In this document: piece after piece, positions 3,508 to 32,000 of the stretch | Layout of the letters: each line of letters begins with the position of its first letter | Position numbering within the stretch: the stretch's first letter is position 1 | DNA from: Acaryochloris marina S15 | Lineage (GTDB): Bacteria; Cyanobacteriota; Cyanobacteriia; Thermosynechococcales; Thermosynechococcaceae | DNA length: 32,000 nucleotides | Reading direction: 5' to 3' | Assembly: GCF_018336915.1 (NCBI RefSeq) | Contig: NZ_CP064923.1 | Location: 1,350,001-1,382,000 of the forward strand | Position numbers and translations under genes: made by a program | Notes under the pieces: generated by a model | Databases searched by the model: none | What the model was told of the DNA's origin: nothing | The model's input: the letters and a program-made list of their open reading frames with translations, nothing else

Positions 3508-5091
3508 ATGAAAGACCTAGCGGCTGTCGAACAGGCATTTAAACGGCTTCAAGCTCAGTTATGTGATCGCTGGCAGGAGATTGAAACTGTAGATACGGGG
3601 CATTCCGATATTTTGGTAATTCCCTCGTTTAGTGTGGATCAACAAGAGCTGCAAAAGATTGATGGGTTTTTGCATTACGAGGAGCGGCTCCTGTTTTCGC
3701 TGATCCGGCTTCGTGATCCGAAAACCCGCTTGATTTATGTGACATCCCAACCGCTGCCGCCGATTGTGATTGATTATTATCTCCAGCTTTTACCAGGCAT
3801 TCCGTTTTCCCATGCCCGAGATCGCTTGTTGCTATTGCCCATTTACGATCAGTCTCTTAAGCCCCTCAGCCAGAAGATTCTAGAACGGCCTCGATTGATG
3901 GAGCGAATTCGGCATTCTATGCGACCAGGTTGTTCCTACATGATCTGCTTTAACTCGACGGACTTAGAACGGGAAATTTCGGTCAAACTCAATATTCCTC
4001 TATTGGCTGCTGATCCAACCCTTTTACATTTAGGGACGAAAAGTGGGAGTCGGCAGGTCTTTGCGGAGTGTGGTATTCCTCATCCTGATGGCAGCCTGTT
4101 GGTGTGGGATACGGAAGCACTCATAGAGGCGGCAGTTGCCCTCTGGCAGCGTCAGCCCCAGCTTCAACGGATGGTCGTTAAGCTGAATGAGGGCTTTTCT
4201 GGAGAGGGAAATGCGTTGCTGGATCTGCGGAATGTTGGGGATATTGAGACGTCAGAAAAAAGACGAAACGTGATTTGCGATCGCATCCCCCATCTCACCT
4301 TTGAATCTCCCACGGAAACTTGGTCTCATTTTTGCGATCGCATCCCCAAACTCGGTGCGATTGTTGAAGCTTTTATTGAAGGGGAATATAAGACCTCTCC
4401 CAGTGTCCAGGGCCAAATTACCCCTAATGGCGAAGTAGAAATTCTTTCAACCCATGATCAGATTTTAGGGGGGCCTAATCAACAAATTTATTTAGGGTGC
4501 CGGTTTCCCGCTTCAGAAGAGTATCGCCTCCGACTTCAGCAGTTGGGCCTCAAAGTCGGTGAGAATCTGGCCAAAAAAGGGGTGCTGGAGCGATATGGGG
4601 TTGATTTTGTCGTAGCCAAGCGCATTTTGGCGGATGGGAGTACCCATTGGGATGTCCAAGCCATTGAAATTAACCTGAGAAAAGGGGGCACGACGCATCC
4701 CTTTATGACTCTGAAACTGCTGACCAATGGCCTTTATGACATGCATAGTGGCTTGTTCTTTGGCCAACAAGGGTTACCGAAGTACTATGTGGCCTCGGAT
4801 AATCTTTGTGAATCTTCCTATCAAGGATTATTACCAGACGACTTGATGGATATTATCGCCCGCCACCATCTCCATTTTGATACGGGAAGTGAGATGGGTA
4901 CGGTTTTTCATCTGATGGGCTGTTTGTCCGAGTTTGGCAAAGTCGGTCTGACCAGTATTGCTAATTCACCAGAACAGGCAGACACGATTTATAACCAGGT
5001 GATTGAGATTTTGAACCAAGAGACCCAGCCACCCACTCAGACCCAAGACACTGATCCGACCCTACCGATTGGTTGGAGTATCGGTAGTTGA
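3508..5091 (+). CDS. ATP-grasp superfamily ligase-like protein (PGM1-type peptide / carboxylate-amine ligase-like), function unknown
   Basis: 527 aa ORF with ATP-grasp-like elements: MVVKLNEGFSGEGNALL (glycine-rich loop region), IVEAFIEGEYKTSPSVQ, and AIEINLRKGGTTHP (catalytic-loop region). Confidence 0.6.
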   Translation: MKDLAAVEQAFKRLQAQLCDRWQEIETVDTGHSDILVIPSFSVDQQELQKIDGFLHYEERLLFSLIRLRDPKTRLIYVTSQPLPPIVIDYYLQLLPGIPFSHARDRLLLLPIYDQSLKPLSQKILERPRLMERIRHSMRPGCSYMICFNSTDLEREISVKLNIPLLAADPTLLHLGTKSGSRQVFAECGIPHPDGSLLVWDTEALIEAAVALWQRQPQLQRMVVKLNEGFSGEGNALLDLRNVGDIETSEKRRNVICDRIPHLTFESPTETWSHFCDRIPKLGAIVEAFIEGEYKTSPSVQGQITPNGEVEILSTHDQILGGPNQQIYLGCRFPASEEYRLRLQQLGLKVGENLAKKGVLERYGVDFVVAKRILADGSTHWDVQAIEINLRKGGTTHPFMTLKLLTNGLYDMHSGLFFGQQGLPKYYVASDNLCESSYQGLLPDDLMDIIARHHLHFDTGSEMGTVFHLMGCLSEFGKVGLTSIANSPEQADTIYNQVIEILNQETQPPTQTQDTDPTLPIGWSIGS

Positions 5092-20159: not shown

Positions 20160-23100
20160 CTATGATCCTTGGCATACGGATAACTGTTCCTGGGGATGAC
20201 TGTCTAAATAATCAGCCAGCCAATGGCAGCCTCGCTGTAATAAGGCATCCAAATGTTCTTGAGGAGTCTCAGACAGTTGCCAAGTCTGAACGGTTCCATC
20301 ATTGGCGACGGACGTCAATTGCTGACCCTTACTGTCAAAGCTGAGATCTTGGATCACCGTAGCGTGACCATCAAATTCCATTTGTAGGTTTCCTTGTAAG
20401 TCCCAAATTTGGATATTGCCATCTGTTGAGCCGGTGGCGATGCGTTGGCCATCAGGACTAAAACGGAGACGATACACAGAGCTTGGATAATTGCGAAAAG
20501 AAGTGAGCAGTTGGCCCTGTCGTGTCCAGAGACGAATTTGACCATCTTCCGATGCGGTGGCGAGGGTCTGGCCATCGGGACTAAAGTGACCGTCATACAC
20601 TGCCCCTTGGTGATCGGGCAGTTGAGCTATCAGATCCCCTGTTAGGGTCCATAATCGGGCAGTACCGTCCTCAGAGGTGGTTAAGAGGTGTCGAGCATCG
20701 GGACTGAAGCGAACGCTATAGACCGCCCCAGAATGGCCTTTCAGTGAAGCCTGCTGCTCTCCCTGGTGATTCCAGAGTTTAACGGTCTCATCCCGAGAAG
20801 CTGTTGCTAGGAGATTGTTTTGGGGGTTGAGTTGGATATTGTAAATGGTATCTTTGTGAGCTTGGAACGTTTGGAGTAGCTTGTCTTTCTGGTATAAGTG
20901 AACGGTGCCTTGCTTGGTGGCTGCTGCCAGTAGTTGTTTTTGAGCCTGGAAGCTCAGACTCGTAACAGCATTGACCTGACTTTGTAGTTGTTTGAAGTTG
21001 GGTTGGGTCGGTTTCCCGATTGACATAGAACCATTCACCCAAGCTGTGATTAAATCCTGGCTGTCAATACTGAAATTCAAACTGGCGATTCTACCTTGAA
21101 GCTGCCGCTGTTGTTGCGCGAGCCAAGTCGAACGAACCTGCCAGATATGGGCACTATCTTCATCATTGGAGGCGGTGGCCAGGAGATTCCCTTGGGGACT
21201 AAACCGAGCGCTATAGACAGCGCCTTGGTGCCCCCTCAATACCTGTAATGCCTGTCCAGATTGATCCCATAGCCGAATGGTTTTATCCCCGGAAGCAGAG
21301 GCTATCCACTGACCTGCTGCACTAAAACTAACGTCGTAAACGGCCCCTTGGTGGCCCCTGAAGATCTTTAAGGGTTTTCCTTGGATGCTCCACAATCGCA
21401 CCGTTTGATCCGCCCCTGCCGTGACGAGTTGCTGCCCATCTGGACTAAAGCTCACATCATAGATAGCGCCTTGATGTCCTGTTAGAACCAATAGCTGCTT
21501 GCCAGTAGGGGTCCAGATGCGGATTGTCCCATCCCGGGAGGTTGTGGCAATCCTTTGGCTGTCGGGACTAATACTAATGGCATAGATTGAGTCTTGATGC
21601 TGTTGGAATCGCAAACGTTGACGCCCTTGGCGATCGAACACAATGGCGGTGCCATCCTTCGAGGCTGAGGCGATATAGTTGCCGTCTCCACTCCAACTGA
21701 GGTCATAGATATCGCCTTGATGTCCTTGCAAGATCTGTACCGTTCGTCCCGACCGGGTCCATAAGCGAATGGTTCGATCTTGAGAGGCGGTAGCCAGAAG
21801 CTGTCCATCAGGACTAAAGGCAATATTGTAGATATCGCCTTGGTGTCCAGTAAGAACCTTTTGGGTTTGTCCTTGCAGGTTCCACAGGCGGGCGGTACCA
21901 TCCCGAGAGGCGGTGGCAATCGACTGGCCATCGGGACTAAAACTGATGCTATTAACCGTGGCTGTATGACCTTCTAAGCGGTTGCGCTCCCAGATATGCT
22001 GCAAGATTTCTTGTAAGGCGATTAAGGGTGTGGTGGTGGGATAGCTTTGTAAAGACTGATGTTGACTCACAAGAGGCCGGAGATTTTGACCGGATTCCAG
22101 GGCCGTGAGTAGGGCTGCAATCTGGTCAAAGTCAAATTGCTGGAGTGCACTTTTACCGGCCCATTCAATGGATTGGGTTTGGGCAATTTGTTGTTGCTGC
22201 AAGGCATGGTTCACCCAGATAGAGGTCGAAATGGCACCTATCAAGGACAGAGCCAGAATTCCTGTGCCTAACCGTAGTTTACGTTTGGCGTCGGCATAGG
22301 CTGCGGCTAGGGTCTGTTTGGCTTGTTTTTCGGCATCGAGTTGGGTGCTTAGACGCTCTAAGTCTCTCGCCTTACGCTCATTGTCAATGGCGATTTGCTT
22401 ATCTAAAGCTTGACTGGCCGCTAGGAATTGGTAATCTTGGTTGCTGAGTTGCTGCTCTTGAGACCAGTCAAAGGCATCTTGTAAGGCCTGACCTCTTAGC
22501 AGGCGAGAGGTATCTTGACGGTCGGATCGTTCCCAGGCCTGCATCATTTCCGCATAGGGGCGCAGGGCAGCCAGTTCCTGTTCTATCCAGCTTGGGTTGA
22601 AAATGTGACGGTAGATACGGTTATAGACGGTTAGTTGCCCTTGTCGACTGACCACTAACCCAGACAGCTGGAGTTCACTGTGGGCCGCACTACCATCGGC
22701 AACCACGAATTCTTGGTCTAGGATCTGGCGATACAGGCCCAGGAGTTGTCCTGTGCGGGCTGGGTGGTGTTGGAGTCGATCACGGATCGTGCGTAAATGG
22801 ACGGGCTCGTCTTGGGTGGACCAATGATTTATGACGTGAGATCGCACCAAGGCTGCAATACTATTTTCCTCTTGTCCTGCCGGGATTTTAGCCTGTTTCT
22901 GAATCACTAATTGGCACAGCTTCTGAGATAGAAAAGGTTGCCCCCCAGTCCAGGCTACTATGGCTTGCAATACAGCTTCTGTATTGGACGCATAAGACTG
23001 CAGTCCCTGCTGGAGTGGCCGAGCTTCTTCTGGGGTGAATCCAGCCAGTTCGATCGCATGGCCAATATTAAATAGGGTTTGGGTTTTATCTTGAATCAGA

Positions 23101-23663
23101 TCAGAAGGGGTCGCGACACCAAATAAGGCGAAGGTTAACCGGTTATAAACGCCATTCTCTGCTCGTTGATTATAAAACAAGCGAATTAAAGCAAAAAAGT
23201 CATCGACGGAGAATGGAAGGCTGAGAATTTTGTCAATTTCGTCAATAAAGATAAAAATCTTACGGTCAGGAACGTACTGGTACAACACCTCATCGATAAA
23301 GTGCTTTAGCTGCTGTACAGGCGATAAATAAGCTTGGGCCTGTAGCCATTGCTTGAGGTTAAGCTGGTCTGTCAGAGCTAACCCTTGCCAGAGTTGAACC
23401 ATCAGACTGGCATACCACTGTTGCTCCTGTACTTGGCTACCCGGCAGGGTCATATCCATGGAGACACAGGAGTGCTGCTGATCGGCCAGATAGTTCATGG
23501 CCCGGACTTTTAGGCTCGACTTCCCCATTTGGCGACTGTTGAAGACATAGCAGAAATCTCCCTGGCTGAGGGCTGCTAACAGTTCATGATCGGCTTGCCG
23601 GGTGACATAGGAAGGATGGTCGTAGCCTAAACTACCGCCAACTTTATAGGCTGTCGAATTCAT
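20160..23663 (-). CDS. P-loop NTPase (STAND/AAA-like) - coiled coil - hydrophobic helix - 14x WD40 repeat protein
   Basis: 1167 aa. The N-terminus reads YKVGGSLGYDHPSYVTRQADHELL...VFNSRQMGKSSL (Walker A), then IFIFIDEIDK (Walker B), DDFFALIRLFYNQRA, FALFGVATPSDLIQD and WTGGQPFLSQKLC. These blocks are typical of the cyanobacterial AAA-like NTPase modules fused to WD40. A charged coiled coil (ERKARDLERLSTQLDAEKQAKQ) follows, then the hydrophobic helix GTGILALSLIGAISTSIWV (nt 22212-22268), then 14 GH...WD-type repeats. Confidence 0.9.
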   Translation of the reverse strand: MNSTAYKVGGSLGYDHPSYVTRQADHELLAALSQGDFCYVFNSRQMGKSSLKVRAMNYLADQQHSCVSMDMTLPGSQVQEQQWYASLMVQLWQGLALTDQLNLKQWLQAQAYLSPVQQLKHFIDEVLYQYVPDRKIFIFIDEIDKILSLPFSVDDFFALIRLFYNQRAENGVYNRLTFALFGVATPSDLIQDKTQTLFNIGHAIELAGFTPEEARPLQQGLQSYASNTEAVLQAIVAWTGGQPFLSQKLCQLVIQKQAKIPAGQEENSIAALVRSHVINHWSTQDEPVHLRTIRDRLQHHPARTGQLLGLYRQILDQEFVVADGSAAHSELQLSGLVVSRQGQLTVYNRIYRHIFNPSWIEQELAALRPYAEMMQAWERSDRQDTSRLLRGQALQDAFDWSQEQQLSNQDYQFLAASQALDKQIAIDNERKARDLERLSTQLDAEKQAKQTLAAAYADAKRKLRLGTGILALSLIGAISTSIWVNHALQQQQIAQTQSIEWAGKSALQQFDFDQIAALLTALESGQNLRPLVSQHQSLQSYPTTTPLIALQEILQHIWERNRLEGHTATVNSISFSPDGQSIATASRDGTARLWNLQGQTQKVLTGHQGDIYNIAFSPDGQLLATASQDRTIRLWTRSGRTVQILQGHQGDIYDLSWSGDGNYIASASKDGTAIVFDRQGRQRLRFQQHQDSIYAISISPDSQRIATTSRDGTIRIWTPTGKQLLVLTGHQGAIYDVSFSPDGQQLVTAGADQTVRLWSIQGKPLKIFRGHQGAVYDVSFSAAGQWIASASGDKTIRLWDQSGQALQVLRGHQGAVYSARFSPQGNLLATASNDEDSAHIWQVRSTWLAQQQRQLQGRIASLNFSIDSQDLITAWVNGSMSIGKPTQPNFKQLQSQVNAVTSLSFQAQKQLLAAATKQGTVHLYQKDKLLQTFQAHKDTIYNIQLNPQNNLLATASRDETVKLWNHQGEQQASLKGHSGAVYSVRFSPDARHLLTTSEDGTARLWTLTGDLIAQLPDHQGAVYDGHFSPDGQTLATASEDGQIRLWTRQGQLLTSFRNYPSSVYRLRFSPDGQRIATGSTDGNIQIWDLQGNLQMEFDGHATVIQDLSFDSKGQQLTSVANDGTVQTWQLSETPQEHLDALLQRGCHWLADYLDSHPQEQLSVCQGS
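20270..21978 (-). repeat. intragenic tandem array of 14 WD40 repeat units (~41-42 codons each; enough for two 7-bladed propellers)
   Basis: I counted 14 units of the form L.GH.g.vy.v.FSPDGq.iAtaS.DgT.rLW...G in the translation. Units 8 and 9 are degenerate (LQGRIASLNFSIDSQDLITAW..., LQSQVNAVTSLSFQAQKQLLAAAT...). Confidence 0.85.
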
Positions 23664-25041
23664 GATTATTCAACGGCATATTGGCAAAGTACTGACGATA
23701 TAGCTCACAACTGGGCTGGGCATAATCCCCTGTGAGACTGACTAACCCCATGCTTTCGAGTTGATAAGCTTGAATCGGTTCTAACCGGACCTCAGGAGAT
23801 TCGGTCACCACTCGATACATGGCGGTGGCCAACTGAGGCTGGCCCTGTAAGGTATTCCACAGCCCCCGTAGATGGGTACTGTAAATACTGCTTTGGGTGG
23901 GAGCTTGTTGGAGTAGATGATTCAGCTGGAGCTGCTGGCGGCGTAGGGCATCAAAAGTGAGATGGACCAGGTAAGGATGACCACCAATGAGGGTTTTCAA
24001 GGCTTGAAAGATGTCAGGAGACTGAATTTCTAGCTTGCTATCCAGATGATATAGACGGGCTAAATCCTGCATTTGTTCAGGTGTAAAGCCCCAGAGTTTA
24101 ATCGGCCACCCCACATTAAAGGGGGATTGATGAGCATCTAGCTCAATGTAAATTTCAGTGGAATGAGCAATGACTAATCGAATTTTCTGCCAAATGGCCT
24201 GAGTATTCGCCTCTTCATTCCAAGAGCGCAGCATGGGTAAAAAATCTTGAGCAATGTGAGGATATTCAAACAGTCGATCGACGTTATCTAAAGCTAGGAC
24301 AAGGGCAACATCAACGTTGGGTAACAGATAGGTTTGAAAGTACGTCTTGCAGCTCATTAAGCTGCCATATATGTCTTCAGCCCAATACTGATCAAGTTGG
24401 GGAGGCAACCCTAATTCGCGGCAAATATTGGCACAAAACCATTGCAAAAATTTATCCAAGCTAGCGAAAATAGACGTTTCAGCTTCGCGAAAGTTCAGAT
24501 AAATTTGTTGATATTCTAAAGTCTGTGCCTGAAATAAAAGCTGGCGCAGCAATGAAGTTTTACCCATTTGGGCAGGGGCTTTAATCCGAACCAGAGCACC
24601 TACTTGCTGAATGGCTTGAGTACAGTCGGCTTCAGTGGGGGGTCTGTCGATGTAAAAGGGAGAGTTCGCAGATAGAGGCGTTCGGTAATTCAAGATAGGT
24701 AAATCTTGAGGCAAGACCGCTGCTCGCATTTGCAGCCATTTGGGATACTGTATATCTTGCAACCAGTCTCGCAAAATATTGAATTTTCCTGGCCCTTTAC
24801 TCAATAAATCTAGTTCAGCACAGCCATGATCTGTTTGACTAGCAAAAGCAGAATAAACCGTAGTCATTTGCTTTTTATAGGATTCATGGCTGGCTGCCTG
24901 GGCCAGGGGCCAAACCTCTTTATCGGGTTTGCGCCAATGCTCATAAGCAAAACGAGTCAGAAAAATATTTTTAACTTTGCCCGTTAAGTTCACTTCTTGA
25001 GCGGTATGCTTCAAGAAATCATCCCATTGGTGAGGTTTCAT
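23644..25041 (-). CDS. AAA-like (AAA_35-type) P-loop NTPase with N-terminal helical, possibly HTH-like, domain
   Basis: 465 aa. The core reads FYIDRPPTEADCTQAIQQVGALVRIKAPAQMGKTSLLRQLL (Walker A), FLQWFCANICRELGL, ALVLALDNVDRLFEYPHIAQDFLPMLRSWNEEA (Walker B region), QSPFNVGWPIKLWGFTPEQ, IGGHPYLV and CELYRQYF. This matches the block pattern I recall for the Pfam AAA_35 'AAA-like domain' family. Its stop at 23644 overlaps the downstream ATG at 23663 by 20 nt. Confidence 0.85.
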   Translation of the reverse strand: MKPHQWDDFLKHTAQEVNLTGKVKNIFLTRFAYEHWRKPDKEVWPLAQAASHESYKKQMTTVYSAFASQTDHGCAELDLLSKGPGKFNILRDWLQDIQYPKWLQMRAAVLPQDLPILNYRTPLSANSPFYIDRPPTEADCTQAIQQVGALVRIKAPAQMGKTSLLRQLLFQAQTLEYQQIYLNFREAETSIFASLDKFLQWFCANICRELGLPPQLDQYWAEDIYGSLMSCKTYFQTYLLPNVDVALVLALDNVDRLFEYPHIAQDFLPMLRSWNEEANTQAIWQKIRLVIAHSTEIYIELDAHQSPFNVGWPIKLWGFTPEQMQDLARLYHLDSKLEIQSPDIFQALKTLIGGHPYLVHLTFDALRRQQLQLNHLLQQAPTQSSIYSTHLRGLWNTLQGQPQLATAMYRVVTESPEVRLEPIQAYQLESMGLVSLTGDYAQPSCELYRQYFANMPLNNHEFDSL

Positions 25042-25280: not shown

Positions 25281-25760
25281 ATGGCTAAATCCTCTGTGAT
25301 GTTGGCTGCTGCTCTGATGGGTGCGACAGCATTTATGTCTCCTGTCCAAGCAGTAATCCTAAGTCAAGAAAGTACACAGCAAGTCCAAGAAGAGCAAACC
25401 TCTTCATTGATTGCGAATAAAACACGATCCCGACGTCATAAGCGCTACTGTTGGCGTCGATATGGTCGACTCTATTGTCGAGATGATCACAATTCCAGTC
25501 GTAATGATCGTTGGCGTCAGCAAAAGCTGAAAGAACGTCGTCGTTGGGAAAAAGAGCGAGACCGCCGTTGGCGAGAGCGTCGTCGACGCTCGGAAAAACG
25601 CCGTCGTTGGGAAAATCGTCGCCGAGATGAAGACTATTGGCGGTCTCGTCGTCGCGATCGCGACTATGAGAATGAGAATTGGCGAAAAGGAGATCGACGA
25701 GGTGATTTCCAAGATAAGCTAGACCGCTGGCTTAATCGTGGCCGTGATGATGACGATTAA
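25281..25760 (+). CDS. secreted Arg/Trp/Asp/Glu-rich repeat protein (hypothetical)
   Basis: 159 aa. It has an N-terminal signal peptide MAKSSVMLAAALMGATAFMSPVQA. About 100 aa follow that are dominated by R, W, D and E, with Trp recurring every 8-14 residues (RRRWEKERDRRWRERRRRSEKRRRWENRRRDEDYWRSRRRDRDYENENWRKGD...). A strong terminator follows. Confidence 0.65.
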   Translation: MAKSSVMLAAALMGATAFMSPVQAVILSQESTQQVQEEQTSSLIANKTRSRRHKRYCWRRYGRLYCRDDHNSSRNDRWRQQKLKERRRWEKERDRRWRERRRRSEKRRRWENRRRDEDYWRSRRRDRDYENENWRKGDRRGDFQDKLDRWLNRGRDDDD

Positions 25761-26440: not shown

Positions 26441-26986
26441 TTATTCTACTTCTACTAAATACTGAGTGGGCACATAATCGGTGAGCCAAACGCCATTTTC
26501 GGAACAATAAAAAAGATAGCCATCAGTTTGCATTTTTAGGGCATTAATTTCTAACACAGTGGGCTTGCCATGTCGTCTGCCTACTGCGATCGCAATTTCG
26601 TATGACGCTGATAGATGAACGTGTTGACGCCCAGAAGGGAGTAAGCCACTCGCCATGATAGACGCTAAAAACCGTGTGGCTGTTCCATGAAATAAAACAG
26701 AAGGTGGTGTCAAAGGTAATAAATCTAAGTTGACCGGAATGGAATGTCCTTGGTTAGCTCGAATATATTGCCCATCTTCACTTAATTTAAAACGCTGCTT
26801 ATCATTAGAAATAACCACTTTTTTGATGATTTCTTCAGATAAAGAATGGTCATGTTTGTCAGCACATTGAATTAAGTCAGAAACGGCTGCCCAGCCACCC
26901 GCATTAAGCTCTAAATCAATGGCCTCTGGCCGATGGCGGAGAATATAGCTGAGAAACTTGCTCACAGCTTTTAACGGTTGGTCCAT
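26441..26986 (-). CDS. kptA: RNA 2'-phosphotransferase, Tpt1/KptA family
   Basis: 181 aa with Tpt1/KptA blocks: VSKFLSYILRHRPE, GGWAAVSDLI, QRFKLSEDGQYIRANQGHS, LFHGTA, GRQHVHLS. Confidence 0.85.
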   Translation of the reverse strand: MDQPLKAVSKFLSYILRHRPEAIDLELNAGGWAAVSDLIQCADKHDHSLSEEIIKKVVISNDKQRFKLSEDGQYIRANQGHSIPVNLDLLPLTPPSVLFHGTATRFLASIMASGLLPSGRQHVHLSASYEIAIAVGRRHGKPTVLEINALKMQTDGYLFYCSENGVWLTDYVPTQYLVEVE

Positions 26987-27079: not shown

Positions 27080-27817
27080 TTAGTCTGTCCCTTGGATCAG
27101 TTGAAAGCCTTTCAAACTTGGACCCACTTGTTCTGAAAAGATAACAGGTCCAAAAGAGTGGGCGACTTCAATCCCTTGGAGATGGCGGACAGTCCAGGCA
27201 TTACAATCAGACCAAATCACATAATATTCACGACCTGGGTAAAACTGCCCCCTAAAATTAGGGACTTGTGGATAGGGGACACTCCGTTCACCATCCTGAC
27301 GCTTGAAGCTTTGCTCTAACGTTGTAATCAGATCATATAGTTGTTGCGCCGAGACTTTCCGATGATACAGTTGCCGCGCGTGCTTTTGGGCCGACAGTAG
27401 CGTGTCTCGGCCTCTCAGGTACATCACTGACTCCGTTGGCAGGATGCCAGCTGTGAGAGTGGCCAGAAACGAGGTGTCGGATAGCATAAAAAAATGCTTA
27501 TCCCCCCAGCCATACTCAACATAACGGGAGTTTGGTGAGTGGGGAGGTCCCAGTGCCCAGCCCTGGGGTTGTTCAATGAGAATAGCGGTATGAAATCCCC
27601 AATTGACGACATAAAGATCATATTCCGCCTTTTTTAATGGGTTGATATTGGGTAGTTCAACTTCTGGAATAGGGGGTGTCCAAATCGCCATATATAGGGC
27701 AGGTACGCCCCACAAACCACCATTAAGCAATAACAAAATACCCAAGCAGCGACGCCGTTGTTTGAGGACGCCCCAAAACTGTCGAATTTTTGTCCGCCAG
27801 AGTGGATGGGTGTGCAT
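27080..27817 (-). CDS. DUF2459 / TIGR02117-family protein (function unknown)
   Basis: 245 aa with an N-terminal basic region and a hydrophobic helix. The segments VVNWGFHTAILIEQP, YVEYGWGDKHFF and YYVIWSDCNAWTVRHLQ resemble the GWHT / eFGWGd / CNtWt pattern I recall for DUF2459. Confidence 0.5.
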   Translation of the reverse strand: MHTHPLWRTKIRQFWGVLKQRRRCLGILLLLNGGLWGVPALYMAIWTPPIPEVELPNINPLKKAEYDLYVVNWGFHTAILIEQPQGWALGPPHSPNSRYVEYGWGDKHFFMLSDTSFLATLTAGILPTESVMYLRGRDTLLSAQKHARQLYHRKVSAQQLYDLITTLEQSFKRQDGERSVPYPQVPNFRGQFYPGREYYVIWSDCNAWTVRHLQGIEVAHSFGPVIFSEQVGPSLKGFQLIQGTD

Positions 27818-27918
27818 GAGGATTTAAATAGGGTTTAACGTAAAAATTGAATTGCATTCCCCTTGGTCCCAAGATAGGATGCCAAAGTTGCAGACAATAT
27901 CAAAAAGTTAGGATTACC

Positions 27919-28341
27919 ATGACCAAAGCCATAATGGAAACCAATAAAGGTACGATTAATCTTGATTTATTTGATCAGGACGCCCCTAATACCGTCAAGA
28001 ATTTCGTTGATTTAGCGAATAAAGGGTTTTATGACGGTTTAGCTTTTCATCGTGTCATTCCTAATTTTATGATCCAAGGGGGATGTCCCAAAGGTACCGG
28101 TACAGGTGGACCTGGTTACACCATCAAGTGTGAAATTAATAACAACAAACACCAAGCTGGAACCCTATCCATGGCCCATGCTGGCCGGGATACAGGCGGC
28201 AGTCAATTCTTTATTTGTCATGCCCCTCAATCTCACCTAGATGGGGTACATACCACCTTTGGTCTGACCCAAAATATGGATGTGGTGAATGCGATTCGCC
28301 AGGGAGACAAGATTCTATCGGTTAAAATTTCTGCAGAATAA
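27919..28341 (+). CDS. peptidyl-prolyl cis-trans isomerase, cyclophilin type
   Basis: The track ORF starts at 27847. The ATG at 27919 gives [67 protein letters not shown]...[16 protein letters not shown], a canonical short bacterial cyclophilin. Confidence 0.9.
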
Positions 28342-28358: not shown

Positions 28359-28937
28359 CTAATTGTTAATGGCTGCACCAGGTGCAATCTGCTCTAGAGA
28401 CAAGTTAGGGCATTCCACGCCAGAAGCCTTTTGTAAGGCTTGGTAACTCACCTTAATGCCCGCCTTCTTCATTTTTGAATAGTTACTGATCAACAGCAAA
28501 CAGGTTTCCAGTTTGATACGGGTTAACTGGGAACGAGCATGTCTCTTACAAGCTTCCATTCCTGCTGATTGAGTATAGGTAAATGAGCCGCCTAGGGAGC
28601 CGGTATCAAAGGGGCCAATCCCATTCCCAAATACTGAAACGGCTAAGCCACTCGTGGTGCAATCGCTTAAACTTTTACCGACAATTGACTTTCCCAAAGG
28701 GCGTTGGCCAGATTGTGAATTCGTTAAGACACCACCTTGAATGAGTTCCAGCTCTGGACTGGCATCTGCTTCAGCTGTATTGCCAACGTCAATATTGTTT
28801 GTCCTAGACTGGGCAAAACCGACGATAGGAGTAAATGATACTTGTACGGCCAGTGTAAGCATCACTAACAACCGTCTCTGTTGTATGACCGATTGCTTTG
28901 ATAGTGAGATGTTTGCTAGCACTGCCTTGGGAACCAA
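28359..28937 (-). CDS. secreted four-Cys protein of unknown family (cassette protein B2)
   Basis: 192 aa with a signal-peptide-like N-terminus (QQRRLLVMLTLAVQVSFTPIVGFAQS). By my hand count it is ~61% identical (81 of 132 ungapped positions) to the 29539-30276 product. The four Cys align between the two, as do the blocks FGNGIGPFDTGS.GGSFTYT and CLLLISNYSKM.KAG.KVSYQAL. The start codon is uncertain (TTG 28937 or the internal ATG 28862). Confidence 0.75.
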   Translation of the reverse strand: MVPKAVLANISLSKQSVIQQRRLLVMLTLAVQVSFTPIVGFAQSRTNNIDVGNTAEADASPELELIQGGVLTNSQSGQRPLGKSIVGKSLSDCTTSGLAVSVFGNGIGPFDTGSLGGSFTYTQSAGMEACKRHARSQLTRIKLETCLLLISNYSKMKKAGIKVSYQALQKASGVECPNLSLEQIAPGAAINN

Positions 28938-28942
28938 TAAGT

Positions 28943-29329
28943 TTAAAAGCTATAGCCTGTTATGGCGTTATTGATGATTAAAGACTCATTAAAGTCGAAC
29001 TCTTCGCGCACCTCAATCTCGATCTGACGAGTAATATTTGCAGTTTCAATACTGACACTAGTAGAAGTTGCTCCGTAGCTATAGTTGGTTTGTGTTGTTG
29101 TGCCGTTCTCGCTATTAGAGGTTTGGGTCGAGCCACTACTGCCATCGGTGGTCAAAGACACAGAACTCTGACTATTTTGCGTAGAGTCATTGATACTTCG
29201 CTCAACAAGGGTATGTCCAGTGGGCGAGACCTGAAAAGTGGTAACGGTTGTGGCGAAAGCACCTTGTCCTAGGGCTGGCCTAGCTCCGACAGTGGTTATC
29301 GCAAATAGAGTGAGATAGAAAAGTTTCAC
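28943..29329 (-). CDS. small secreted Ser/Thr/Asn-rich protein with aromatic C-terminus (cassette protein A2)
   Basis: The track ORF is 28943-29359. I prefer the GTG at 29329, which gives (M)KLFYLTLFAITTVGARPALGQGAF..., a signal peptide. The mature part is S/T/N/Q-rich. The C-terminus EEFDFNESLIINNAITGYSF parallels DSYDYSGINKTHRVTGGFSF of the 30346-30741 product. Confidence 0.65.
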   Translation of the reverse strand: MKLFYLTLFAITTVGARPALGQGAFATTVTTFQVSPTGHTLVERSINDSTQNSQSSVSLTTDGSSGSTQTSNSENGTTTQTNYSYGATSTSVSIETANITRQIEIEVREEFDFNESLIINNAITGYSF

Positions 29330-29538
29330 GTGATATAACCAACGACACTTGCACAACAAAGCATCTCTACGCAGCTAATCATTTGTCTTAGACTGTCAGA
29401 AATTTTTAAATTGCACATTGCTCACCTAGGGTAGGCAAACTTTTGGAAACAGCAAATGAGCATAAACAAGAAGTATCAAATCAAACTAGATTTAAGCCAA
29501 CTTGATATATTCAACGCAATTTGGATAATAATCGAGAA

Positions 29539-30276
29539 TTATCGGTAGGCGTTAAAGTTTTGCTGTTGAGTAGGGGCTTGTGAAGGCACTGGGTGATTTG
29601 GGCTTTGTTGGTGCTGTTGATTGAGTCTGGGGTTTTGTTGAACCTGACGTTGGTTCGGTGAGATATTTTGGAGTTGTTGAGGCTGCTCAGGTTGTTGCGG
29701 TTGATAGAGCACTGGCTGAGGACGAGCCTGGGGAGGAGCTGTACGGCCCAATGGTCCAGGGTTGTTTGCCGGTGCGATCGCACTTTGAACCACAATCGGA
29801 GGACAATCCACACCACCAATTGTTTTTAGAGCTTGATAACTGACTTTAACGCCAGCTTTAATCATCTTGGAATAGTTGCTGATCAGTAACAAGCAGTTCT
29901 CTAACTTGGCTTTGGAAAGCTGTGTTTGGGCATATTCGTTACATGTTCCCATACCAAAAGAATGGGTATAAGTGAACGAACCACCAATACTACCCGTATC
30001 AAAAGGGCCAATTCCATTGCCAAAAGCAGAAGCAGCAATACCATTACTGGTGCAATCTGCAACTCCTCGACCAACAATACTTCGCCCTAAAGGATGAGTA
30101 TTGACCTGTGTATTAACCAAAGAACCTTGTTGATTCAAATCGACAGCCGGATTCGCTGTGGATTGGGCATTGTTGGGAGCATCAATATTATTAGTGGTTG
30201 TTTGGGCTAGAGCAGAATGAGATGAAATTGCTAAAAACCCAACAACTGATGCACAGAAAAGAAAACGAGGGCGCAT
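29539..30276 (-). CDS. secreted four-Cys protein of unknown family with Gln/Pro-rich tail (cassette protein B1)
   Basis: The track ORF is 29539-30327. The ATG at 30276 is preceded by aggaga 8 nt upstream and gives MRPRFLFCASVVGFLAISSHSALAQTT, a signal peptide. It is a paralog of the 28359-28937 product and has an extra ~85 aa P/Q/N-rich C-terminal tail. Confidence 0.8.
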   Translation of the reverse strand: MRPRFLFCASVVGFLAISSHSALAQTTTNNIDAPNNAQSTANPAVDLNQQGSLVNTQVNTHPLGRSIVGRGVADCTSNGIAASAFGNGIGPFDTGSIGGSFTYTHSFGMGTCNEYAQTQLSKAKLENCLLLISNYSKMIKAGVKVSYQALKTIGGVDCPPIVVQSAIAPANNPGPLGRTAPPQARPQPVLYQPQQPEQPQQLQNISPNQRQVQQNPRLNQQHQQSPNHPVPSQAPTQQQNFNAYR

Positions 30277-30345
30277 AAGTGAATTCTCCTGAATTATAAA
30301 AGGGGCAACGGGATAACGTTGCCCCAAGAAATATACTTAATTCAG

Positions 30346-30741
30346 TTAGAACGAGAAACCACCTGTTACTCTGTGGGTTTTGTTGATTCCAGAGTAATCG
30401 TAGCTGTCTGTATTGTGTACGTTGGTTGTTCTGGAGAGCTTACCATCTTCAGTTGCAGAGCTGATAGTTGAAATGGTTGAGTGGTCAGTTTCCTCAAACC
30501 AGACCCCATCTTTATCTCCAGATGTGGTGGTAGTTGCATCAACATGCTTAGTGGAGGTTGAACCTGCCCAGGTTGTAGCATCGTAGGTCTCATGAACATT
30601 CACATTGGTTGTGGAATGACCGTTAAAGATGCTCTTGACTCTATAGCTGTTCTCAACATAGGACTCGCCAGCTGCAGCAGGTAATGCGGCAGCGCCAAGG
30701 GAGATTAGGACCGCAAGAGGTGCGATTTTTTGAAGTTTCAT
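30346..30741 (-). CDS. small secreted Ser/Thr-rich protein with aromatic C-terminus (cassette protein A1)
   Basis: 131 aa with signal peptide MKLQKIAPLAVLISLGAAALPAAAG. The mature region is T/S/D/N-rich and ends in ...VTGGFSF. It lies immediately upstream of B1 on the same strand. Confidence 0.75.
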   Translation of the reverse strand: MKLQKIAPLAVLISLGAAALPAAAGESYVENSYRVKSIFNGHSTTNVNVHETYDATTWAGSTSTKHVDATTTTSGDKDGVWFEETDHSTISTISSATEDGKLSRTTNVHNTDSYDYSGINKTHRVTGGFSF

Positions 30742-31380
30742 GAGTAGTTACCGCTGAAAGTGTTTAGTAGCAATGGGCTTGGTGATGAAAGCTCGCCCAA
30801 GAGATAAGTGCAAACAAATAAAGCCTGCAACAGAATTAGCATTAAAAAGCAAAAACACTGACACCAGAATCCATCTCATGTCTTAAAGCACCAACTGCTC
30901 ATAAAGAACATCCCCCTGTTAGTGCTTGATGGTGTATTTTTGCTGTCAAATCAACTTGCCTAAACCATCTAGATCAGGTAGTTGAACTTTAATAACTAAC
31001 GTTGCAATACAATATATTGCCCGTGTTTTGCGTTTCAAATTACCCCATGGAACAAAACAGCGAAGTTGTAAATCTAATTGAATTACAACACCGAATACCT
31101 GATTTGCTCTGACAATAAATAATTTAATTCACAAGCAAACTGTAGTCTGGATTTTTTTGCCCCTAGTGCTTTTTCACAAAATATTCACTCACCTAGAGAA
31201 AAAATTAAGAGATATCTTTTTTAGCTAGAGAGTATGAGACTATACCTAGCCTTATACTTCAGATCTTTAAGTAGAAATGGCATCATTTTATAAAGAAGAT
31301 TGAAGTTTATAGTAGTTTTAATTAGAAGTTTCTTTCTCTTGTAATATCTCTGTTTTGTATTGTGTTGGTACAAGAGTATT

Positions 31381-31428
31381 TACTTATTCCCTCAGACAGA
31401 AAGGCAAGGATGTCTGAAGGAATAAGTA
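31381..31428 (-). terminator. long hairpin downstream of the 31489-32000 gene (possible terminator or RNA stability element)
   Basis: 18-bp stem with one mismatch, tacttattccctcagaca (31381-31398) pairing with tgtctgaaggaataagta (31411-31428), and a 12-nt loop. It lies 60 nt past the stop of the minus-strand CDS. There is no clear U tract on either strand. Confidence 0.35.
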
Positions 31429-31488
31429 AGCGTTTGGAAGAGGCCATAACGCTTGTGTCATAGTGATGAGCCGAAAGCCATCATTCAA

Positions 31489-32000
31489 TCAGCTTTGAGA
31501 TAATCTCTGAATGGATTGCCCACCTAGTTGTAAGTGTGTCTGTGATAGGAGTTCAGGTATTTTTTCAGCATGGGGGCTAGCTCTTAAGCATTCCTTCAGA
31601 TCCAAGTTGGACAAATGGGTTGCTTTTTGACCGGGGAACCAGTGACTGGCTTGCCCTAGGAGGTTGTAGCGCATCTTGGCATAGTCTTGCATGTCATAAG
31701 CTAGAGCTAGATTTCGCAACCATAGAATGACGGGAATATTGATATTGCCGGGCGTTTGCTCATGGGTTGGCAGGCCTTGATGCCAAGTGTTGACCCAGTC
31801 TTCGCCTAGGGTTGAGATTGCTGCTGCTTGCAGCCGCTCCAAGATCGGTGGTAGCAAGGTCTCTGCTTGTTCGAGTAGCTCCAATGTTTTCAGATGTTCA
31901 TCAAAATCACTGGGGCGAGCTGCACCCAAACTGAGGGTATGGACTTGGGGATGACTTAAGCAGAATAAGTCGTTGAATACTATGGGGCTGAGGGGTTGGC
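31489..32000 (-). CDS. C-terminal part of a protein continuing past the right edge (possibly aldo/keto-reductase-like)
   Basis: The track ORF is 31489-31929, but I checked that the frame remains open from 31930 to the window end (...QPLSPIVFNDLFCLSHPQVHTLSLGAARPSDFDEHLKTLE...). The HPQV..LSLGAARPSDFDEHL segment resembles the C-terminal strand and loop of aldo/keto reductases. That assignment is weak. Confidence 0.45.
   Translation of the reverse strand, partial: QPLSPIVFNDLFCLSHPQVHTLSLGAARPSDFDEHLKTLELLEQAETLLPPILERLQAAAISTLGEDWVNTWHQGLPTHEQTPGNINIPVILWLRNLALAYDMQDYAKMRYNLLGQASHWFPGQKATHLSNLDLKECLRASPHAEKIPELLSQTHLQLGGQSIQRLSQS

Follow-up and report, generated by a model that had tools for sequence, protein, structure and literature searches.

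Acaryochloris marina S15 carries, within a stretch of 32,000 nucleotides of its chromosome (contig NZ_CP064923.1, positions 1,350,001 to 1,382,000; hereafter the window, with positions counted from its first letter), four minus-strand genes for secreted proteins, termed here A, B1, C and B2. We read the locus as one copy of a conserved operon that has not been described before and whose products would be envelope proteins exported by Sec. Its core is a pair of genes, and A lies directly upstream of B across cyanobacteria, other bacteria and a cyanophage. The operon most likely builds a cell-envelope or surface structure, and we infer that a fiber subunit with a disulfide-stabilized partner remains the best reading of the pair.

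Comparison of about 20 cyanobacterial loci (Acaryochloris, Thermosynechococcaceae, Lyngbya confervoides, Limnothrix, Petrachloros and Altericista) reveals a recurrent gene order in which one to three A genes are followed by B, C and D, with a signal peptide on every product. D is a small aromatic-rich protein for which homology to A, C or B was not detected. In the Acaryochloris lineage of the window the position usually held by D is taken by the tail-less B2, and this A-B-C-B2 variant occurs only at one syntenic locus in five Acaryochloris-like genomes (the window and loci L010, L011, L012 and L014), while a minimal A-B form is found at L003, L007/L026 and L028. A. marina MBIC11017 has two tandem A-B-C-D units from AM1_4110 on and, in addition, a window-type locus consisting of AM1_4602 (A), 4603 (B), 4604 (C) and then B2. 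On Acaryochloris chromosomes the operon locus is stable and syntenic. An earlier sequence-only reading of the window had taken the four genes for a duplicated two-gene cassette, A1-B1-A2-B2. That description does not hold, since the gene earlier called A2 is a member of a separate, older C family, C is the third operon gene also in genomes that lack B2 but have the A-B-C-D order, and the two splits differ. In a neighbor-joining tree without bootstrap, B2 forms a long-branched, lineage-specific clade nested within the cyanobacterial B radiation, and C accompanies B already in earlier-branching clades without B2; A/C and B/B2 thus go back to two distinct duplications.

The adjacency of A and B extends well beyond this lineage. 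An A-family open reading frame (ORF) lies no more than 700 bp upstream of B in 34 of the 34 cyanobacterial B genes with enough upstream sequence, so that the neighborhood check proposed in the sequence-only reading comes out in favor of the pair, as it does in distant metagenomic lineages and a cyanophage. B itself is rare: a word-index search gave 45 proteins, and an exhaustive search of 1.84e9 cluster representatives with the B profile gave 19 at E<=1e-3. The distant B relatives, obtained from the exhaustive profile search and a metagenome scan, reside on contigs ranging from 35% to 67% GC, and wherever upstream sequence is present a small Ser/Thr/Gly/Asn-rich protein with a signal peptide is encoded just upstream of them or, at L031, a few genes away. 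These upstream proteins carry the motifs of cyanobacterial A, E[VIF]GV[TSR]N near the N-terminus and H-x-V-S-x-F near the C-terminus. Both motifs are present in 40 of the 3107 ORFs of all fetched loci, each of the 40 directly upstream of B (the motifs were chosen post hoc, and the count speaks to specificity only). Alignment of the cyanobacterial A profile with the distant upstream proteins by hhalign is not significant (E 0.038); their likeness to A comes from the shared terminal motifs and from position.

Among cultured viruses, the T4-like Synechococcus phage S-CAM7 (NC_031927) encodes an A-like gp026 followed by a B-like gp027, and the pair recurs on several marine phage-like contigs that are syntenic with this phage. 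A scan of viral contigs with cyanobacterial B patterns gave no match, the phage homologs being reached only through the distant B branch. The phage and marine homologs fall into the PHROG families phrog_28091 (A-like, E 1e-65), phrog_1755 (B-like, 5.5e-32) and phrog_848 (B-like, 2e-5), all annotated as 'unknown function'; the window proteins do not reach E 0.01 in this collection. The annotated S-CAM7 gp027, which starts at locus position 4022, is probably N-terminally truncated: the ORF at 3884-4393 of locus L057 also covers a signal peptide and the N-terminal stretch of the B domain that is conserved.

The surroundings of the distant pairs are varied. Peptidoglycan enzymes flank the pair in two independent contexts, SLT in one and a phage lysozyme together with YkuD in the other. 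On one metagenomic contig (L031, Logan SRR34502224) the pair stands among KilA-N and DUF5906 primase genes, with three to four unrelated small genes between A and B, and on another (L033, Logan SRR25760724) it stands beside an IS605 OrfB/TnpB gene. In one cyanobacterial lineage known from metagenomes (L003, 86-1425), genes for an ECF sigma factor and an anti-sigma factor of the RskA type lie directly upstream of A-B in divergent orientation, a hint of envelope-stress control. A conserved ending, P-[VI]-[RK]-[GA]-L-W, follows the Pro-rich tail in many B proteins from the distant and the A-B-only branches (P0038, P0041, P0044, P0045, P0056, P0057 and the ORF at 2280-2927 of L054); the motif, which is absent from B1 and B2 of the window, could be a docking or sorting motif.

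That the four genes are real is supported by their evolution. All four ORFs were found where the sequence-only reading had placed them, and in comparison with four orthologous loci each is under purifying selection, with dN/dS of 0.10-0.19 for A, about 0.09-0.11 for B1, 0.09-0.13 for C and 0.03-0.11 for B2. The overall range of 0.03-0.19 marks them as real genes under purifying selection and agrees with the earlier argument that both pairs are selected. The longer N-terminus of B2, from TTG 28937, stays open in its orthologs, but ATG 28862 is an alternative start. The nearest database proteins are from Acaryochloris, at 98-99% identity to A. marina NIES-2412-like proteins and 70-85% to those of A. 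marina MBIC11017. Signal peptides of the Sec type, with small residues at -3 and -1, can be read by eye on all four proteins, as had been claimed. Likewise, A and C are Cys-free and Ser/Thr/Asn-rich, with mature lengths of 106 and 107 residues (against the estimate of about 105) and a content of 47-57% Ser, Thr, Asn, Gln and Gly. The pI values of mature A and C, 5.3 and 4.1, lie on the acidic side, and those of B1 and B2, 9.2 and 8.7, on the basic side.

The relationship between A and C is visible only at the level of profiles. Pairwise BLASTP of the two window proteins is not significant (20% identity, E 0.38), but a profile of 27 A sequences and one of 15 A2-type sequences can be aligned across 93 columns, as far as the C-terminus (hhalign probability 97%, E 8.8e-11; reversed-sequence control, E 0.09), and an HMM seeded solely with A sequences finds all of the A2-type (C) genes at E<=1e-21. 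By these profile comparisons A and C are distant paralogs. The C-terminal motif that the sequence-only reading had seen in both is real, although the spacing it gave is off by one residue (DSYDY-x8-VTGGFSF vs EEFDF-x9-ITGYSF). The A family comprises 27 locus-derived sequences and 22 database proteins, all of them without Pfam domains.

AlphaFold2, run on mature A with a shallow alignment of 24 sequences, models the protein as a single beta-hairpin of about 50+50 residues, with strands at 2-52 and 55-104 and a turn at D53-G54. Mean pLDDT is 72.8, rising to 88-90 in mid-chain, and pTM is 0.32, as expected of an extended shape. The pattern of conservation agrees with this model. Length variation in the family, including loops with a Cys pair, is confined to the predicted tip of the hairpin; conservation alternates with period 2 along both halves; and the cross-strand correlation of conservation is positive only at odd i+j, with maxima at 109 (r 0.69) and 107 (r 0.60). 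The invariant positions, 12 in the mature protein, share with the hydrophobic ones a single semi-hydrophobic face, the opposite face being polar, charged and variable. The tip-only insertions, the period-2 conservation and the single conserved face thus speak together for the AlphaFold2 hairpin, and the conserved face fits packing against another protein layer or core. Foldseek with the A model returned only stem hairpins of oligomeric barrels and tubes (E 5e-6 to 1e-3, TM-scores 0.2-0.35, identity 7-18%), and in BFVD only generic long-hairpin matches. The parallel is one of geometry; hairpins this long are nonetheless known only within oligomers, each solved structure that has one being an oligomeric barrel or tube. 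C, very acidic and Ser/Thr-rich, would likewise be a hairpin-type protein.

B is a different kind of protein. B1 and B2 are clear paralogs, with 57% identity over 159 positions by BLASTP (E 8e-64), close to the earlier count of about 61% over 132; in a codon alignment 95 of 164 residues (58%) and 58% of nucleotides are identical, with dS saturated. The four aligned Cys reported earlier (C75, C112, C128 and C158 in B1 numbering) are invariant across 24 family members. In the B1-type tail, 36 of the last 75 residues are Pro or Gln, and B2 is without this tail. The AlphaFold2 model of B is poor (pLDDT 50), the only confident parts being helices at 109-140 and 147-154, which are preceded by short strands; Foldseek with this low-confidence model gave no match. 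B is predicted to consist of a beta region followed by a disulfide-braced helix-turn-helix and, in B1, by the Pro/Gln-rich tail, and we infer that the four invariant Cys brace the beta region to the helix-turn-helix.

Non-coding signals set A apart from its neighbors. The terminator- or attenuator-like hairpin between A and B1 has nine pairs, seven of them GC, and is followed by the B Shine-Dalgarno sequence. An equivalent hairpin with a different stem sequence follows the last A gene in most related loci. Where a locus has several A genes, each copy has a strong hairpin behind it, with weaker ones after B and C. This layout would be typical of a highly expressed gene for a major subunit with read-through into minor components, and A is presumed to be that major subunit. 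The leader directly upstream of A is identical at 79-83 of 91 nucleotides (87-91%) to that of three other Acaryochloris species, compared with 59-83% for the coding sequence, where dS is about 0.8 or more, and further conserved blocks reach some 450 nucleotides upstream of A, to about 31200. In the leader, RNA structure was not detected (z -0.8, no covariation), and Rfam gave only sub-threshold chance matches. A sigma-70 promoter scan stayed at background (6 sites, 6.5 expected). Candidate roles for the conserved region upstream of A are those of promoter, operator or unusual leader. Farther upstream, at 31375-31432 (minus strand), a sub-threshold Rfam match to the eukaryotic mir-4677 (34.5 bits, gathering score 80) is almost certainly a chance hairpin in an AT-rich intergenic region.

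Features of the operon in the window of Acaryochloris marina S15
Feature	Positions	Strand	Details
Gene A (earlier A1)	30346..30741	minus	ATG start, 131 aa
Gene A signal peptide	30667-30741	minus	aa 1-25; cleavage between ...PAAAG and ESYV
Gene B1	29539..30276	minus	ATG start, 245 aa; Shine-Dalgarno AGGAGAA
B1 signal peptide	30205-30276		aa 1-24
B1 four-Cys core	29782-30204		aa 25-165
B1 Pro/Gln-rich tail	29542-29781		aa 166-245
Gene C (earlier A2)	28943..29329	minus	GTG start, 128 aa; signal peptide aa 1-21
Gene B2	28359..28937	minus	TTG start 28937, alternative start ATG 28862; tail-less B paralog
Terminator/attenuator-like hairpin	30292..30325	minus	stem GGGGCAACG-loop-CGTTGCCCC and U-tract, in the 69-nt A-B spacer
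Conserved non-coding leader/promoter region	30742..30831	minus	directly upstream of A

It is a serious possibility, although one that we hold short of probable, that beta-hairpins of A, as the major subunit, polymerize through lateral hydrogen bonds and that B serves as nucleator or anchor of this polymer. In such a scheme A would be made in excess, from one to three tandem copies with a terminator-like hairpin after each. After Sec export and cleavage of the signal peptide, A hairpins could join side by side through their free beta-edges, and the conserved faces could pack together, against C or B, or onto a core or a second layer. A polymer in the form of a tube or sheet would result, periplasmic or on the cell surface, with C as a minor variant subunit. 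The basic B would attach to the acidic hairpins at their conserved base, at which N- and C-terminal motifs come together, and would act there as nucleator, cap or anchor, the tail of B1 perhaps reaching through the cell wall. The complementary charge of the two partners (pI 4.1-5.3 for A and C, 8.7-9.2 for B) was counted in favor of their pairing. Also on the side of the scheme are the conserved gene order, the evidence for the hairpin, the terminator-like hairpins behind the A genes, the precedent of the Microcystis CT pilus and, as context, the peptidoglycan enzymes beside distant A-B pairs.

Several points weigh against this scheme. The filament, its localization and the A-B interaction are all drawn from sequence and modeling. 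The hairpin model of A is of moderate confidence, with low pTM, a spread of pLDDT from 47 to 73 over the five models and a shallow alignment behind it, and the model of B is poor. Higher expression of A is read from RNA hairpins only. The window encodes no outer-membrane channel, usher, chaperone or glycosyltransferase. The phage A homolog, very polar and rich in Gly and Ser, could be a disordered protein. Similarity to the pilin of the Microcystis CT pilus, discussed below, did not appear among the PDB chain matches of the A or B profiles, the presence of the pilin structure (9BTQ) in the copy searched being unconfirmed.

Other explanations of the pair deserve to be weighed alongside the polymer. 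In one, which we regard as unlikely, A and B form a non-polymeric complex in the periplasm or at the cell wall. It would change the envelope, for instance where a receptor, a porin or a peptidoglycan site is blocked or altered, and would serve superinfection exclusion or host takeover in phages and envelope homeostasis in bacteria. The occurrence of the pair in S-CAM7 and the syntenic marine phage-like contigs, its presence on contigs with KilA-N and primase genes, the flanking SLT, phage lysozyme and YkuD, the ECF sigma/anti-sigma genes beside one locus and the fact that no export channel is encoded nearby would all suit such a complex. However, PADLOC gave no match, the locus is stable and syntenic in Acaryochloris chromosomes, and the presence of A in several tandem copies, each with a terminator, points to a structural product made in bulk. 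Further, a lone hairpin of 100 residues has two unsatisfied beta-edges and should therefore oligomerize.

Improbable, in our estimate, is that the pair is secreted to act as an antimicrobial or to form pores (a bacteriocin or binary toxin), with A hairpins building a beta-barrel pore in the target membrane and B as a helper or binding component. The leading Foldseek matches are indeed pore stem hairpins (lysenin, CDTb, iota Ib, anthrax PA, aerolysin), the tandem multiplication of A recalls bacteriocin loci, and the pair is found on mobile or phage elements. Yet TM-scores of 0.2-0.35 make the structural match purely geometric, and A has neither a cap or receptor domain nor any Pfam domain. The tip of its hairpin is polar, variable and tolerant of insertions rather than amphipathic-hydrophobic, an immunity-like membrane protein and a transporter are lacking, and selection is strongly purifying instead of diversifying.

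Quite improbable is the idea that A and C are exported as Ser/Thr-rich, possibly O-glycosylated components of a mucin-like matrix and are for the most part disordered, that AlphaFold2 over-predicted the hairpin, and that B is an unrelated small disulfide protein binding their conserved termini. The 47-57% Ser, Thr, Asn, Gln and Gly of A and C, the low pTM, the two of five models with pLDDT <50, the Gly/Ser/Arg-rich phage homolog and the heavy O-glycosylation of the CT pilin on Ser and Thr would be compatible with it, but strict period-2 conservation over about 100 residues with 12 invariant mature positions, dN/dS of 0.1-0.19 across the full length and the restriction of indels to one central site argue against it. 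Finally, the sequence-only reading had hinted that the C-terminal aromatic-x-aromatic pattern could be an outer-membrane beta-signal. That A and C are small integral outer-membrane beta-barrels inserted by BAM is highly improbable, even though all 22 aligned cyanobacterial A proteins, and the cyanobacterial C proteins likewise, end in [FY]x[FY] and a weak, non-significant profile match to Opa60 (E 0.86) was seen: with one semi-hydrophobic conserved face and one polar, charged and variable face, A offers no lipid-compatible surface, AlphaFold2 gives an open hairpin and no barrel, 106 residues are too short for known 8-stranded barrels (OmpX has 148), and distant A proteins end in FSR, FSN or FANP.

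The families themselves have no characterized relative in the databases searched, as the sequence-only reading had supposed. Scans of the four window proteins, D and the distant homologs against Pfam, NCBIfam and PADLOC gave no useful match (for A, B, C and D none in Pfam or NCBIfam at E<=1), nor did PHROGs or PDB sequence searches. With hmmsearch against all PDB chain sequences, the B profile had 0 matches at E<=10 and the A profile three non-significant ones (E about 0.7-1), with no pilin among them. A literature search for the A. marina locus tags found no mention of them. The finding is rated as new because its components are without a characterized relative, because a stand-alone bare hairpin has no described counterpart, and because the pairing spans bacteria and phages; this rating draws on negative searches and one model of moderate confidence.

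More broadly, and rather more doubtfully than the polymer itself, A and B (with C and D in cyanobacteria) might represent a new class of Sec-dependent two-component beta-hairpin polymer, in which bare hairpins zip into a tube or sheet that a four-Cys B seeds or anchors. Such a class would be common to cyanobacteria, other bacteria and T4-like cyanophages, and phages could equip or remodel the envelope of the host with a version of their own. If A is indeed a free-standing hairpin of 100 residues that polymerizes, it would represent a new way of building surface or envelope structures in bacteria. Carriage by marine cyanophages would add an exported, envelope-directed pair to the auxiliary genes of phages, and 'hypothetical' families including phrog_1755, phrog_848 and phrog_28091 would receive their first annotations. 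Given that the module is small, with two core genes and conserved N- and C-terminal motifs, and that orthologs exist in the cultured A. marina MBIC11017 and cyanophage S-CAM7, these proposals are directly testable.

The rest of the window is housekeeping in character (the cta operon, an ABC-2 transporter, NadC, a LysR regulator) and holds no export machinery; among the neighbors of the operon are also DUF2459, KptA, cyclophilin, AAA_35 and WD40. In Acaryochloris genomes the operon has as syntenic neighbors the genes for DUF2459 (27080-27817) and a KptA/Tpt1 RNA 2'-phosphotransferase (26441-26986), and a cyclophilin gene (27847-28341) also adjoins it in the window. At locus L029 the DUF2459 and KptA neighbors are present and only residues 96-162 of B2 remain, which points to loss of the operon in that genome. 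An AAA_35 NTPase gene (23644-25041) overlaps by 20 nucleotides the downstream gene for a 1167-residue WD40-repeat protein (20160-23663) on the minus strand, and the two make up a STAND-like pair. In a distant metagenome-assembled genome of the Acaryochloridaceae, another AAA_35 gene (L007, 5677-7050) is the immediate neighbor of A-B, which may be coincidence or a link. Two more ORFs are without a Pfam match (31489-31929, minus strand, 146 aa; 25281-25760, plus strand, 159 aa).

Comparison with known systems places the A-B pair apart from most of them. Phage spanins (Rz/Rz1) were rejected, since A, B and the phage homologs have signal peptides that by eye are of the SPase I type, with no lipobox Cys and no retained transmembrane segment. 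A chaperone-usher pilus was likewise rejected: no such Pfam families are present in the window or the related loci, and A is not an Ig fold. The stems of oligomeric pores and tubes (lysenin 5EC5, CDTb 6UWR, iota Ib, anthrax PA 3J9C, aerolysin, the phi29/Andhra tail knob and the FlgH L-ring) contribute one very long two-stranded hairpin per protomer, which exists only within a large oligomeric barrel. A, in contrast, would be the hairpin alone, with neither a globular domain nor a hydrophobic membrane-spanning tip, and the likeness is one of analogy, not homology. The gas vesicle protein GvpA resembles the proposed arrangement in that a long beta-hairpin forms the wall by lateral antiparallel association (PMC12397347), but it is cytoplasmic, lacks a signal peptide, has flanking helices and shows no sequence match. 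Curli (CsgA major subunit, CsgB nucleator, CsgC disulfide protein) come closer in composition, with Sec-exported subunits rich in Asn, Gln, Ser, Thr and Gly, a major and a homologous minor subunit comparable to A and C, and a small Cys-containing partner alongside. They were nevertheless rejected, as there is no match to a Curlin repeat or Csg family and CsgG, CsgE and CsgF are not in the window; further, the curli subunit is a five-repeat beta-solenoid, whereas A is predicted to be a single long hairpin.

The CT pilus of Microcystis aeruginosa, described in 2025 and with a biogenesis that is itself unknown, would be the only near precedent for a polymer of this kind. Its pilin, MrpC/BH695_0841 (PDB 9BTQ), has a Sec signal peptide, is of about 12 kDa and Ser/Thr-rich, and folds as two long beta-hairpins followed by a helix-turn-helix in a single chain (PMC12397347). 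In the pilus tube the hairpins bond laterally through antiparallel beta-sheet hydrogen bonds, in two layers, with one face of each hairpin packed on the second layer; a paralogous 'pilin-like' gene is adjacent, and the assembly machinery is unknown (PMC12397347). There are also differences. Where the CT pilin combines hairpins and helix-turn-helix, here they would reside on separate chains, the hairpin in A and C and the helix-turn-helix in B: the A model is one hairpin without helices, and the B model has confident helices and a low-confidence beta region. Unlike the CT pilin, B has four invariant Cys and B1 also a Pro/Gln tail. The CT pilus cluster contains an O-GlcNAc transferase, an FkbM methyltransferase, an adhesin and a surface or porin protein (PMC12397347), while neither the window cluster nor the related loci encode an O-GlcNAc transferase, FkbM methyltransferase, adhesin or porin. 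Similarly, CT pilins have been reported only in cyanobacteria (PMC12397347), unlike the A-B pair, which occurs also outside cyanobacteria and in phages. Membership in the CT family is not supported, given the lack of a sequence match, the differing accessory genes and the distribution beyond cyanobacteria. As far as genes and models reveal the A-B system, the Microcystis CT pilus would stand as its closest analogue: both are cyanobacterial, Sec-exported and Ser/Thr-rich, and both combine long hairpins, in A by prediction, with a neighboring paralog.

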